DNA from: Patescibacteria group bacterium
GTDB lineage: Bacteria; Patescibacteriota; Patescibacteriia; JAHIZJ01
Direction: 5' to 3'
Assembly (NCBI GenBank): GCA_041650335.1
Contig: JBAZLK010000002.1
Span: forward strand, 41,818-105,817
Length of the DNA stretch: 64,000 bases
Shown here: piece after piece, positions 5,293-57,345 of the stretch
Position numbering within the stretch: the stretch's first letter is position 1
How the letters are laid out: each line of letters begins with the position of its first letter
Position numbers and translations under genes: made by a program
Notes under the pieces: model-generated
The model's input: the letters and a program-made list of their open reading frames with translations, nothing else
Databases searched by the model: none
What the model was told of the DNA's origin: nothing

Positions 5293-9733
<4,441 letters not shown>

Positions 9734-38213: not shown

Positions 38214-38402
38214 TCAGGCGCGAGGCGGTGCCGGTCTATCCGTCCACCGTCCCTGTTTGTGATACCCGCAACTACTGCACTGGATGACCAAGTCGCCGCC
38301 CGCAAGTCGGGTACAACCGGCTGTGCTGCGGCAATCCGGGCATTCCACCAGACAATTGCGTGCTTCCCGATCCGCAAACTGATGCTCGATGTAGGCGGCC
38401 AT
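38214..38402 (-). CDS. 62-aa four-Cys zinc-ribbon protein (hypothetical)
   Basis: CPDC...(21 aa)...CSSC. Its ATG begins 1 nt after the TGA of the upstream 428-aa gene (TGAaATG), so likely translationally coupled. Confidence 0.45.
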   Translation of the reverse strand: MAAYIEHQFADREARNCLVECPDCRSTAGCTRLAGGDLVIQCSSCGYHKQGRWTDRPAPPRA

Positions 38403-38403
38403 T

Positions 38404-39690
38404 TCAGGATCGAGCTGCCGCCTCAGGTCCAGGCAAATCCTCATGTCCCGCCCTCCTGTCTGCCATTTCCGTGAGGTTGCCGGTCAGTTTCTGCGAGGAC
38501 TGCTTCAGCAATTCCCGGGCATCTGACAGCGTGCTCCGATCACGCGCCCGCACAAGCGCCTGTGCCTCGCTGACCAGGGAAATCGCGTCTGCCGTCACCG
38601 GCTGGGCAAAACCGGTTTCGTCGATCTGCCTGAGCAACTGGAGGCTGTGCTCAAGCTGTCGTTCTGCCGTGACCCAACCGAATGAGCGTTTCTTCTCGAG
38701 TAGAGCCCGGTGCATCAGATAGATGACGCGTTCGATCACGATCTGCGCTTGTTTCAGCCGAGCCGACATGAGCGAGCGGCTGGCTAACTGCCGATACTCA
38801 GCGAGACTGCCGCCGATCAAGCACTCGGCGCCGGTCCGCAGTTCCCCACTGATGTACCGGGCATTGACAACATACGGCCGGAAGTCGATGCCATCAAGCT
38901 CCTGGGCCAGAATGAGCTGGTAGTGGTGGATCCGCCGGACATCCCGCCGATCTGCCGAGGCAAAGGCGGACGGCTGAACCACCAGCTCGAGGTAGTCCGT
39001 CAGCCGGCCGAATACATAGTTGGCCCAGCAGATGAGGTTCAGGAACACCTTTTCCCGCATGGCCACCACCGGTTCGATTCGCATGATCGCCTGCATGAGT
39101 CGCTCTTCGGTCAGATCCATGAGCTTCAGCGTTTGAGCCAGCAGCGCGCCTTCATTCGGACGCCCACGGCTGTCCCGGGCCTCACTCATCCGACCCAAGA
39201 TATCGAGGATATCCCGTTTCGGCAGACTGCGCGGCCGCTGCATTCCCGGTTTCTGGAGGATCTGTCGGGCGATCGGTCGCAACCGGGCGGCGTACTCATC
39301 GGCATTGTTCCAGCGCAAGCCGACCACGGCGCGATTCAACGCCTGAGCCAGATCTCTGACTTCCAGGATGGTCAGCTTCTCGCCTTGACCAAGCGTCAGA
39401 CCGTACTGGGCCAGGACGGCCAGTACCTGGCGAAAGGCCTTGTACGAGCCGTCAACCAGCTGGAAGCGGAGGTGTTCCGGTTTCCAGCGGTAGCGCCGGC
39501 GGCGATTGGCGATCAGCTCATCGAGAACTTCTTCCCAGCGCGGCACGGCGATGAACCCGCCAAACTGAACGGGCTGAGTTACGATCGCAATGTCTGAGCC
39601 GAAAACGTCGACGCGACCGGTGATATCCGCCGGCCGATCCTTCACATAGACCCGAATCGGCAATACCGAGTCACTTCCAATCGGACGCAT
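38404..39690 (-). CDS. hypothetical 428-aa Arg/Leu/Ala-rich protein (island gene, no recognisable domain)
   Basis: Long clean ORF. SD GGGAGG 5 nt before the ATG. Consensus promoter upstream. High G+C. No Walker, HExxH or recombinase motifs. There is one RRDVRRIHH segment (Rx6H; HEPN-like match is speculative). Confidence 0.75.
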   Translation of the reverse strand: MRPIGSDSVLPIRVYVKDRPADITGRVDVFGSDIAIVTQPVQFGGFIAVPRWEEVLDELIANRRRRYRWKPEHLRFQLVDGSYKAFRQVLAVLAQYGLTLGQGEKLTILEVRDLAQALNRAVVGLRWNNADEYAARLRPIARQILQKPGMQRPRSLPKRDILDILGRMSEARDSRGRPNEGALLAQTLKLMDLTEERLMQAIMRIEPVVAMREKVFLNLICWANYVFGRLTDYLELVVQPSAFASADRRDVRRIHHYQLILAQELDGIDFRPYVVNARYISGELRTGAECLIGGSLAEYRQLASRSLMSARLKQAQIVIERVIYLMHRALLEKKRSFGWVTAERQLEHSLQLLRQIDETGFAQPVTADAISLVSEAQALVRARDRSTLSDARELLKQSSQKLTGNLTEMADRRAGHEDLPGPEAAARS

Positions 39691-54715: not shown

Positions 54716-55102
54716 TTACGAAGTAAGTGATAAGATTTCGACAATTTTTTGGACCACCTCGTCGAGTTTAACATCGGTTTTCACGAAATAGGCGATGGCA
54801 CCGAGTGACTTTGCTTTTTCAAAGTTTGTCGCGCCGGCCAGATTTGAAAATACGATTACGGGGATGTGGCTGGTTTCTTGATTCGCTTTTATCTTCTCGA
54901 GGAATTCAAACCCGTGCATGCGCGGCAAAATAAGATCGAGCAAAACGAGATCGGGCCTCTCGGCTTCGGCGACAGCTAAACCCTCGCTCCCGTCAAACGC
55001 CTTCAGGATCTCAACGTCGTCTCTCTTCAAATGATCGGCGACCGCTTGTAGCACGTCCGGTTCATCTTCGACCAGGAGTATTTTTCGTTTAATATCGGCC
55101 AT
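54716..55102 (-). CDS. stand-alone response-regulator receiver (CheY-like) protein
   Basis: 128 aa; LLVEDEPD...LVLLDLILP...KT receiver signature. Confidence 0.85.
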   Translation of the reverse strand: MADIKRKILLVEDEPDVLQAVADHLKRDDVEILKAFDGSEGLAVAEAERPDLVLLDLILPRMHGFEFLEKIKANQETSHIPVIVFSNLAGATNFEKAKSLGAIAYFVKTDVKLDEVVQKIVEILSLTS

Positions 55103-55200
55103 GTTTTCGTTTAAATCGTACCGTGTTTATTTTACCACTTCGGTCAGCGCAGAGCAACAGCATACCCATTGAACCATTGTGGCTTGTTTATCGCGAATCG

Positions 55201-55437
55201 TTAATCGAGATAGATGCGAAATTTTTTTACCCGGCTTGTTTCGCCTGAAACGAGCGCGATCGCCGATTTCGGTACATCAAAACGTTCGGCCAGCAATTCA
55301 ACCACCGCTTCGTTCGCTTTCCCCTTTTCCGGCGCGGCGGTGACATGGGCCACAAACCGATCGTCTTTTTCGACAAGAGAATTGCGTTTTGCTTTCGGCG
55401 TTACTTTTACAGTTTTGACCACTGGTCTTGACATCAT
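55201..55437 (-). CDS. DUF167/YggU-family protein
   Basis: 78 aa; YggU-like sequence (KVTPKAKRNSL...VTAAPEKGKAN). Confidence 0.7.
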   Translation of the reverse strand: MMSRPVVKTVKVTPKAKRNSLVEKDDRFVAHVTAAPEKGKANEAVVELLAERFDVPKSAIALVSGETSRVKKFRIYLD

Positions 55438-55456
55438 TCGGTTTTTATGCTAAATT
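55428..55456 (+). promoter_or_regulatory. candidate promoter for island B
   Basis: TTGACA-17 nt-TAAATT. The -35 overlaps the DUF167 start codon on the other strand. Confidence 0.35.
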
Positions 55457-55512
55457 TCTCAGTCAGTCTCTCTGGATCTCGCACCACTCAACCCCCACGG
55501 AGGAGTTCGAAC

Positions 55513-55989
55513 ATGTTCATTGACGAGACGATCGCCGCCAACCTGATCCGCCACACCCGTGAGCTGCTCAAGCTGATAGCCACCTTGCCGGAGAACGAGA
55601 AGCGGGAGCGGCAGGGAGTCTATCTTTGCGTCCGCGATCAGGCAACTGGTCTCATCCTCCTGCTGGTTCCGGTCGGCAAGTTCGACGACATGAGCTTCGC
55701 CCGGCGCTGCTGCCTGTATGCGCAGGAGAAGACTGCTCGGTTGCTCAGCCACCCCGAGCATCAGGCCTCATCGCAGTCGGCCAACCCCGATCTGGAACTC
55801 TATGGCGGCGGCGTCGTCTGTCCGATCGCCAACGTCATCATTGCGCCGTCGGGTCTGACTGCCGTCTGCGACGAAGCGCTCGGGGCCAATCTCGGGCTCA
55901 AGATGGGCTGGATGTTCCCTGATCAGATCAGCCACCTGTCCACCCTGACCCAGAACACCGCGATCACCTCGCTTTGCCGCGCCGCCTAG
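55513..55989 (+). CDS. GlcG/DUF336-like protein (island gene)
   Basis: SD GGAGGAG 7 nt before the ATG. High G+C. VYLCVRDQATGLILLLVPVGKFDD...KTA and YGGGVVCPI resemble DUF336 core motifs (vDxgGxLvalxRmdgA...KA.tA; GGGvPI). Confidence 0.55.
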   Translation: MFIDETIAANLIRHTRELLKLIATLPENEKRERQGVYLCVRDQATGLILLLVPVGKFDDMSFARRCCLYAQEKTARLLSHPEHQASSQSANPDLELYGGGVVCPIANVIIAPSGLTAVCDEALGANLGLKMGWMFPDQISHLSTLTQNTAITSLCRAA

Positions 55990-56041
55990 TACTGATCGAA
56001 CTACTGCCGTAGCCTTCTACGACGAATAAGGAAGTTCACTG

Positions 56042-56227
56042 ATGGACAAACCGACTGGCACCTATCAGTGCGTCGTCTGCGACCATCTTTGGGACGGCTC
56101 TCAGCTGTATCAAGATCCGCAATCGCTTGGCGGAAAACGTTGGACCTGCGGCGATATCCGCTGCGGAGGGAATGTCAAGAAGATCAGTGACCAACCTCTG
56201 CTCTCGGCTCCGCCCACGACGACGTAA
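56042..56227 (+). CDS. 61-aa four-Cys zinc-ribbon protein (hypothetical)
   Basis: SD AAGGAAG 7 nt before the ATG. CVVC...(19 aa)...CGDIRC. Pro/Thr-rich tail. Confidence 0.5.
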   Translation: MDKPTGTYQCVVCDHLWDGSQLYQDPQSLGGKRWTCGDIRCGGNVKKISDQPLLSAPPTTT

Positions 56228-56279
56228 ACGTCCGATTCAATGACTCGGACCATTGCACAACCGCTGCCAATCCGGCAGC

Positions 56280-56330
56280 ATGCGTCCGTTGCGAATCTTT
56301 CGTGACGGGCGCTTTTCTATTTGTTTTTGT
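56280..56330 (+). terminator. rho-independent terminator
   Basis: GCGTCCG/CGGGCGC 7-bp stem (one G-U pair) then TTTTCTATTTGTTTTTGTTT. The T-run overlaps the convergent kinase-like gene stop. Confidence 0.45.
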
Positions 56331-57345
56331 TTAATTGTTCGCCGCAATAATCAAATATTCCACTGAACAATTTTACTAAATGCGTAATGTGCTTTTGGCG
56401 GTTACTGGCATAGTACTGGTTTCGAAGATCGACGAGCAAGGCGGCGACACAGCGCTCGGCCATCATCAGGTAAAACTTCCTTTCAAATCCGGCGTCTTTT
56501 CTTACAATCGGAAGTTTTTTATATTCCGCAATCCATTTTTCCAGATAGCTAATGACGTAATTTACCGTAATGTGTTGTTTTCTAATGCTTTTTATGCCCG
56601 CCCAGAGATGAAAGGCGGCGTCATAATACTCCGGACGGTAGGACCAGAATAAATTCGACATGAGCACGTATTCATTTGCCGACAGTTTATAGATATCGTC
56701 ATAGGTAAAATGGCCGTGCATGAACTTCATCCTCACCCCCGGCAAATGGCGGCGAGCGAGCGCTTGGAATTTCCTCACCATCGCTTTCGTCGTCTTGTTC
56801 ACCCGACCTTTTGATTGTGCCACGGCCAGCCAGTGTTTGAGGCGTTTCATGACAAACCGCAGGCTTTGCCGCTCATCAGGCTCTTGGGCGAATAATGGCG
56901 TATTGAGACACCTACTTTTGTACTCCTGGTAGAGAGCGCGAAAATCTCGCATCTGCCTTGTATCGGCAAATGGCGGCCGATAGATCTTCGGCGCGTCGAT
57001 ATATTCCAGCAATAAATAGCCGTACCCATTTATTTTGTTCCATTTTTTTCCGCCATACAACCGCGGTAACCTTACTTTCGTGCTTTTGTTCTGACGATTA
57101 AATCTTTTGATGATGTCGATTTCGTCGATTTCCGGACAAAGACCCTGGATTTTTAAAACCGCCGGCTTGTTTCGCCATTGGCCCCGGTAGATCAGGCTCC
57201 CAACCTTATTTTTGTCGTAAATTTGCCCCCGGAAGATTTCCTGGCCAGGCCGGAAACCGGTTGCCGCCACAATTTCTTTCAGCGTCTTTGCCGCATCAGA
57301 AAAACCAGTATGGGTAAAATACTTTTCGGTGATTCTATTGCTCAT
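56317..57345 (-). CDS. protein-kinase-like-fold phosphotransferase (APH/choline-kinase-like), putative
   Basis: 342 aa. Lys-rich N-lobe. MHGHFTYDD resembles the HGD catalytic loop. Overall weak family match. Confidence 0.4.
   Translation of the reverse strand: MSNRITEKYFTHTGFSDAAKTLKEIVAATGFRPGQEIFRGQIYDKNKVGSLIYRGQWRNKPAVLKIQGLCPEIDEIDIIKRFNRQNKSTKVRLPRLYGGKKWNKINGYGYLLLEYIDAPKIYRPPFADTRQMRDFRALYQEYKSRCLNTPLFAQEPDERQSLRFVMKRLKHWLAVAQSKGRVNKTTKAMVRKFQALARRHLPGVRMKFMHGHFTYDDIYKLSANEYVLMSNLFWSYRPEYYDAAFHLWAGIKSIRKQHITVNYVISYLEKWIAEYKKLPIVRKDAGFERKFYLMMAERCVAALLVDLRNQYYASNRQKHITHLVKLFSGIFDYCGEQLNKNK

Follow-up and report, generated by a model that had tools for sequence, protein, structure and literature searches.

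The window analysed here, a 64,000-nucleotide stretch of the Patescibacteria group contig JBAZLK010000002.1 from a metagenome-assembled genome (MAG), contains a plus-strand transcription unit (positions 55428–56322) in which a gene for a 158-aa protein is followed by a gene for a 61-aa, zinc-ribbon-like protein. The original prediction had described this 0.9-kb unit as an island acquired between a DUF167 gene and a kinase-like gene, with a GlcG/DUF336-like protein as its cargo. On balance, we favour another reading, in which the 158-aa gene is a long-standing, vertically inherited resident of its locus, its product is a divergent branch of the GlcG-like/DUF336 proteins, and the zinc-ribbon gene was inserted later. 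Deviant G+C content, an opposite strand and self-contained expression signals are here no sign of recent acquisition.

Conservation of the 158-aa gene at its locus

The 158-aa open reading frame (ORF; positions 55513–55989, plus strand) exactly matches the NCBI hypothetical protein MFA5107110.1 (WC497_02140). A word-indexed search of 5.8 billion proteins returned no more than three close relatives (95, 73 and 61% identity). All three adjoin a divergent DUF167 gene, and the window's junction is reproduced wherever the contig spans both neighbours (loci L001, L002 and L003–L005). In a GTDB representative genome (L006), the arrangement is identical to that of the window. When the junction was compared in relatives, as the original prediction had proposed, the 158-aa gene was present on the plus strand, next to DUF167 on the minus strand, in L001 (73% identity), L002 (61%), L005 and L006 (95%), and L009 and L010 (36%).

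The last two loci represent the nearest outgroup (P0004, 36% identity), which was recovered by an exhaustive profile search. In them the gene is again divergent from DUF167 and lies downstream of IleRS and two response regulator genes. Identity between the window and L009 is 63% for IleRS, 47–48% for the response regulators, 33% for DUF167 and 36% for the product of the 158-aa gene, which therefore diverged together with its neighbours. The ratio of non-synonymous to synonymous divergence (dN/dS) of the 158-aa gene is 0.13–0.29, and the gene is under purifying selection. We conclude that it has been at this locus since the divergence of relatives whose IleRS is 63% identical. Since relatives with as little as 36% identity carry it at this position, the predicted island is refuted for the 158-aa gene and holds only for the 61-aa gene, a lineage-specific insertion.

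We also looked for traces of mobility. No tRNA genes were found at the locus, flanking repeats were only short and at chance level, and no mobility genes were recognisable in the list of ORFs between 52 and 60 kb, six of which were profile-searched. PHROG and PADLOC gave no match, and collections of phages, plasmids, viral contigs and metagenome contigs contained no relatives.

In the record that carries L006 (CAYJKP010000001.1, 668 kb), genes sampled around the locus are 90–98% identical to those of the window at the protein level. This record is labelled as an uncultured Gammaproteobacteria bacterium, whereas the window's identical NCBI proteins are labelled Patescibacteria group; it is unlikely that both labels are correct.

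Insertion of the zinc-ribbon gene

The 61-aa ORF (positions 56042–56227, plus strand) exactly matches the NCBI hypothetical protein WC497_02145, and its four cysteines follow the CxxC...CxxxxC arrangement of small four-Cys zinc-ribbon proteins. In an alignment of four loci, this gene together with its ribosome-binding site stood out as a cleanly bounded indel of about 240 bp, preceded by the stop codon of the 158-aa gene and followed by a conserved terminator. The zinc-ribbon gene is confined to the clade of at least 95% identity (the window, L003, L004 and L006). L001, L002 and L009, which served as outgroups by identity alone, lack it. Because it is missing from these three more distant orthologous loci, a single recent, lineage-specific gain is the economical reading. 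In the clade of at least 95% identity, the insertion would have made a monocistronic unit bicistronic.

Unlike small four-Cys zinc-ribbon proteins in general, the 61-aa protein found no match in Pfam, NCBIfam, PHROG or PADLOC. Its only distant homologue among the 5.8 billion proteins is P0154, which is 52% identical, shares the four cysteines and a GGNVKKISD motif, and is encoded in an unrelated context. Metagenome and viral contigs contained no further loci of the zinc ribbon or of the 158-aa family, and the other sampled loci showed no zinc-ribbon partner beside their family members. Co-occurrence of the partners, for which a comparison across genomes had been suggested, is therefore not that of a conserved system in this family.

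The gene for P0154 (positions 399–572 of locus L007) is bracketed by 64-nt direct repeats at 181–244 and 585–648 that are 89% identical, and each repeat resembles a terminator, with a hairpin and a T tract. The arrangement gives the impression that insertion of a small gene unit duplicated a terminator there.

The 158-aa protein family and its relationship to GlcG/DUF336

The 158-aa protein matched nothing in Pfam, NCBIfam, PHROGs or PADLOC, even at E ≤ 1. An exhaustive HMMER profile search of 1.84 billion cluster representatives (clusters at 50% identity) recovered 631 representatives at E ≤ 1e-3 and 84 at E ≤ 1e-10, most of them 150–175 aa long. A family alignment of 91 sequences gave the consensus ...QEK..RL..HP.H.SSWQSR.P....YGGAI.....I.SFSGLPE..DEA...IS.N.. 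and in none of these 91 does a Pfam domain cover the family region. A search of the PDB with the family profile found nothing, and no DUF336 chain. The 158-aa protein thus belongs to a family of about 630 clusters that lies outside every public profile library and that may come mainly from Patescibacteria-like genomes. The protein has a conserved polar cluster (E72, K73, R76, S86, S113, D120, E121 and N148).

AlphaFold2, run on the 91-sequence alignment, produced a high-confidence model of the 158-aa protein, an alpha/beta/alpha domain, with a predicted local distance difference test score (pLDDT) of 97.6 and a predicted template modelling score (pTM) of 0.92; a four-sequence input had given an unusable pLDDT of 35. 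The modelled elements are helices (H) 5–22, 60–79, 117–130, 136–146 and 149–157, strands (E) 34–42, 48–56, 101–103 and 108–113, and a short helix (h) after the second long one, in the order H-E-E-H-(h)-E-E-H-H-H. This order appears to follow the one published for the GlcG-like sandwich, alpha-beta2-alpha(n)-beta2-alpha, with two extra helices at the C-terminus. Foldseek comparisons of the model with the PDB (no match at E ≤ 1e-3) and with BFVD yielded nothing significant, the best of the weak matches being LuxR-type ligand-binding, GAF and Roadblock domains with template modelling (TM) scores of at most 0.41. In SCOP, these three kinds of domain are profilin-like alpha/beta/alpha sandwiches.

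A remote resemblance to DUF336 emerged from profile–profile comparison. We used hhalign to align the family profile with a diverse DUF336 profile, to which five divergent PDB chains had been added (2A2L, 4NKP, 6BWS, 9JTH and 5CX7). The alignment ran through 88 colinear columns, from strand 1 to helix 3, with a score of 32.8, a probability of 62.5% and a P-value of 7.3e-5. A reversed profile reached only 13.0. For 100 profiles with shuffled columns the scores were 11.3 ± 2.3, none of them above 17.5, and the observed score stands about 9 standard deviations above these shuffled controls. At the level of sequence profiles, the similarity thus exceeds what controls produce, and it is weak in absolute terms. 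Individual HMM-to-sequence scores were tiny (0–6.5 bits), and the two alignments inspected, to EfgA and GlcG, landed on the same motifs. In EfgA, residues K57, S114 and D121 are implicated in formaldehyde binding and are largely conserved in DUF336 (PMC8153426). The hhalign alignment pairs them with K73, S113(-G114) and D120, each of which is at least 90% conserved in the 91 family sequences. In our judgement, the family probably represents a highly divergent branch within the GlcG-like superfamily, outside PF03928 as currently profiled. The likeness to GlcG/DUF336 in the original prediction survives in this form, as a remote superfamily resemblance.

Several results weigh against this placement. 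PF03928, which had been proposed as the profile to search with, gave no match to the 158-aa protein at E ≤ 1 and matched none of the 91 aligned family sequences at E ≤ 0.01. No DUF336 structure appeared within the top 50 Foldseek matches in the PDB, where none reached E ≤ 1e-3. The hhalign probability was only 62.5% at best, and fell to 9% with a narrow profile built from E. coli GlcG and its orthologues. Together with the negative PDB profile search and the tiny HMM-to-sequence scores, these results favour the view that the family is not homologous to DUF336 but has an independent alpha/beta/alpha (profilin- or GAF-like) or new fold, its GG...SG...D likeness being convergent or due to chance. 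We regard that view as unlikely, if worth keeping in mind, given the distance of the hhalign score from its shuffled controls over a long colinear alignment, the pairing of three residues implicated in DUF336 function with positions that hardly vary in the family, and the apparently identical order of secondary-structure elements.

A placement of the family within the GlcG-like superfamily would rest on further common features. The set compared comprised GlcG, OrfY (2A2L), HbpS (3FPV), the C-terminal domain of PduO (5CX7), EfgA (6BWS/6C0Z) and NahX (9JTH). The proteins are of similar size, about 130–160 aa, and share colinear motifs: a beta hairpin with V.D..G, then EKA or EK..R, GG.P or GGAI, and GVSG...D..A or SFSG...DEA. 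The Lys/Ser/Asp triad to which ligand binding is attributed in EfgA is also kept. In contrast to GlcG-like proteins, the family escapes PF03928, the PDB profile search and Foldseek, and it has the two extra C-terminal helices, a nearly invariant Asn (N148) and a specific H.SSWQSR.P motif between helix 2 and strand 3. The syntenic clade differs additionally in its conserved Cys39 and Cys66–Cys67 pair, the latter on helix 2 just upstream of K73; one may speculate that these cysteines would suit thiol-based chemistry.

One family member, P0100 (317 aa), is a fusion of three parts: an N-terminal region beginning MPIITV that by eye looks tautomerase-like, a weak match to the DnaJ-type CXXCXGXG zinc finger (PF00684, sub-threshold at E 0.0057) and, last, the family domain. 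This protein is the only hint that links the family to a zinc finger.

Proposed function

A GlcG-like protein would be expected to form a homo-oligomer, from tetramer to octamer, and to bind a small molecule, for instance heme, cobalamin or an aldehyde. Among characterised DUF336 proteins, HbpS is a heme sensor that feeds a two-component system, the C-terminal domain of PduO binds heme and cobalamin, and EfgA is a cytoplasmic formaldehyde sensor that arrests growth (PMC8153426, PMC4923194). The predicted Lys/Ser/Asp pocket, which binds formaldehyde in EfgA, appears to be retained in the family. Like efgA, the 158-aa gene stands alone, with no conserved operon context outside one clade (PMC8153426). 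Neither a signal peptide nor a membrane segment was seen on reading the 158-aa sequence, for which no predictor was run. By inference, the 158-aa protein would be a cytoplasmic, probably oligomeric sensor or chaperone that binds a small ligand, and not the cargo of an island. The family of about 630 clusters, for which profile libraries have no coverage, probably extends the GlcG/DUF336 ligand-sensor superfamily into the reduced-genome Patescibacteria, with the pocket residues of EfgA kept.

Base composition and synonymous sites

As predicted, the cassette is G+C-rich. The 158-aa gene has a G+C content (GC) of 0.625 and a third-position G+C content (GC3) of 0.82, with A at only 4% of third positions (A3), compared with a GC of 0.46–0.49 and a GC3 of 0.48–0.56 in the flanking genes; the zinc-ribbon gene has a GC of 0.57. 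In five syntenic orthologue sequences from four loci, GC3 is 0.82, 0.81, 0.78, 0.72 and 0.69, while that of their neighbours is 0.37–0.58. The original prediction would have yielded to presence of the cassette at this locus across the lineage with host-like composition: the 158-aa gene is present in the relatives, and its composition is host-like in none of the syntenic orthologues.

Synonymous divergence (dS) of the 158-aa gene between orthologues is 0.8–1.6, compared with 1.3–5 in the flanks. Since GC3 stays high in the orthologues despite such heavy synonymous substitution, the G+C excess is no fading foreign signal. In the individual comparisons, dS of the 158-aa gene was 0.81 against 1.3–1.7 for flanking genes, 1.0 against 1.8–3.1, and 1.6 against 5.2; these lower values suggest constraint on its synonymous sites. 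One point weighs against long residence as a full account of the gene: a GC3 of 0.82 with 4% A3 is far beyond the host range and above the values of ribosomal-protein and ATP-synthase genes, so residency alone is no explanation. A stable synonymous G+C excess in a single gene, exceeding that of these genes, is a small but real puzzle of codon-level selection.

Two possible causes of the high GC3 were considered. Ordinary translational selection is unconvincing, because GC3 is no higher than 0.55–0.69 among the window's ribosomal-protein and ATP-synthase genes and because the 158-aa gene prefers G to A at third positions even in Lys, Glu and Gln codons. An overlapping antisense gene was rejected: the antisense frame stays open only in the stretch of lowest A3 and is interrupted in L002 and L009. 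This unconserved antisense ORF is a by-product.

We extended the comparison to family genes in differing contexts, among them those at 8001–8489 of L009, 6001–6510 of L011, 6001–6462 of L015 and 6001–6825 of L016. Those of L011, L015 and L016, which lie in unrelated contexts, are 0.08–0.11 richer in G+C than their neighbours, and a G+C excess over the neighbours was seen in seven of the nine loci sampled. GC3 is host-like in the remote members L013 and L014. In L009 and L015, none of the other genes listed shares the strand of the family gene; in L014 the family gene likewise lies opposite to its neighbours, and in L016 one neighbour is co-oriented with it.

High GC3 in every syntenic orthologue, host-like GC3 in some remote family members (L013, L014) and somewhat raised G+C at first and second codon positions of the 158-aa gene would fit an ancient horizontal transfer, in which a donor of very high G+C content passed the gene to the ancestor of the syntenic clade and the present GC3 is an incompletely ameliorated remnant. 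We consider such a transfer improbable. Despite a dS of 0.8–1.6, GC3 remains 0.2–0.35 above that of the neighbours even in the 36% orthologue; the G+C-richer genes of L011, L015 and L016 point to a family property rather than a single transfer; and the dS below that of flanking genes suggests synonymous-site constraint. A more far-reaching proposal, which we hold to be rather doubtful, is that the family is an unrecognised GlcG-like branch that, like EfgA, senses small molecules on its own (an aldehyde or a redox signal, for instance), and that its lone opposite-strand unit and its G+C-rich, A3-depleted codons are selected and not traces of transfer. Recent arrival of the complete 0.9-kb cassette as a foreign module between the DUF167 and kinase-like genes is very hard to uphold: the cassette does resemble genomic islands and acquired cassettes in its atypical G+C content, in lying opposite to some 60 kb of neighbouring genes and in having a promoter and terminator of its own, but integrase or other mobility genes (in the list of ORFs between 52 and 60 kb), attachment sites, tRNA genes and meaningful flanking repeats were not found, phage, plasmid and viral collections are without relatives, its main gene is syntenic across deep divergence and diverged in step with its neighbours, and recent-gain behaviour is limited to the 61-aa gene.

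Among greedily chosen ORFs of at least 150 aa in the window, the sole other comparable outlier lies at 38404–39690 on the minus strand, within a region that had been called island A (38214–39690, minus strand). This region comprises a 428-aa ORF with a GC of 0.61 and a GC3 of 0.73 and an overlapping 76-aa ORF that ends in a CPDC motif. Neither ORF has a Pfam match at E ≤ 0.01.

Anatomy of the transcription unit

The expression signals of the original prediction are present in the window. A sigma-70-type promoter, TTGACA-17-(TG)cTAAATT, lies at 55428–55456 on the plus strand; it matches at 10 of 12 positions and has a TG extension. No other promoter-like site occurs within 55100–56500, where 0.5 would be expected by chance. 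The Met-Ser codons of DUF167, on the minus strand, are overlapped by the -35 hexamer of this promoter. The promoter core is 83–90% identical across four loci whose coding sequences are 61–95% identical. A Shine-Dalgarno sequence read from the DNA, GGAGGAG (55499–55505, plus strand), stands 7 nt upstream of the ATG at 55513, and its GGAGG is kept in L001 and L002. The second, AAGGAAG (56028–56034, plus strand), was likewise read from the sequence and precedes the ATG of the zinc-ribbon gene at 56042 by 7 nt. With a promoter, a strong ribosome-binding site and a terminator of its own, the 158-aa gene would be transcribed divergently from DUF167.

At the 3' end, folding predicts a small hairpin, GCTGCC-AATCC-GGCAGC (56263–56279, plus strand), whose counterpart in L001 is CTGCCG-CAT-CGGCAG. 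It is followed by an intrinsic terminator (56282–56322, plus strand) made up of a 14-bp stem (56282–56312) and a U tract, TTTTCTATTT. Folding of this 3' region gave -42.7 kcal/mol (z = -5.75). The terminator region is alignable and recognisable in L001, L002 and L003, at 58–90% identity to the window, and is less conserved than the promoter core. A regulatory leader RNA upstream of the 158-aa gene was considered and rejected, since the leader has no Rfam match, folds no better than shuffled sequences (z -0.02) and shows no special conservation.

The divergent neighbour is a DUF167 (YggU-family) gene at 55201–55437 on the minus strand (PF02594, E 4.5e-23), and no Shine-Dalgarno-like sequence is visible upstream of its start codon. 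A 14-nt block, TTTATGCTAAATTT (within 55438–55456), is invariant in the four loci; it could have a role in the plus-strand promoter, in the DUF167 leader, or in both. On the other side, the unit faces a minus-strand gene for a 342-aa kinase-like protein (56317–57345), which has sub-threshold matches to APH and fructosamine-kinase profiles (E 0.02–0.04). This neighbour is kept in L001 (69% identity) and L006 (90%), and in L009 an unrelated 254-aa protein stands in its place.

Between about 770 and 62150, no plus-strand genes other than those for the 158-aa and 61-aa proteins are convincing, an assessment that leaves aside a few other plus-strand ORFs in this span, one of which (55214–55453) is antisense within the DUF167 gene. 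Nearly all genes between 767 and 62150 are on the minus strand, and the cumulative GC skew declines steadily across the window.

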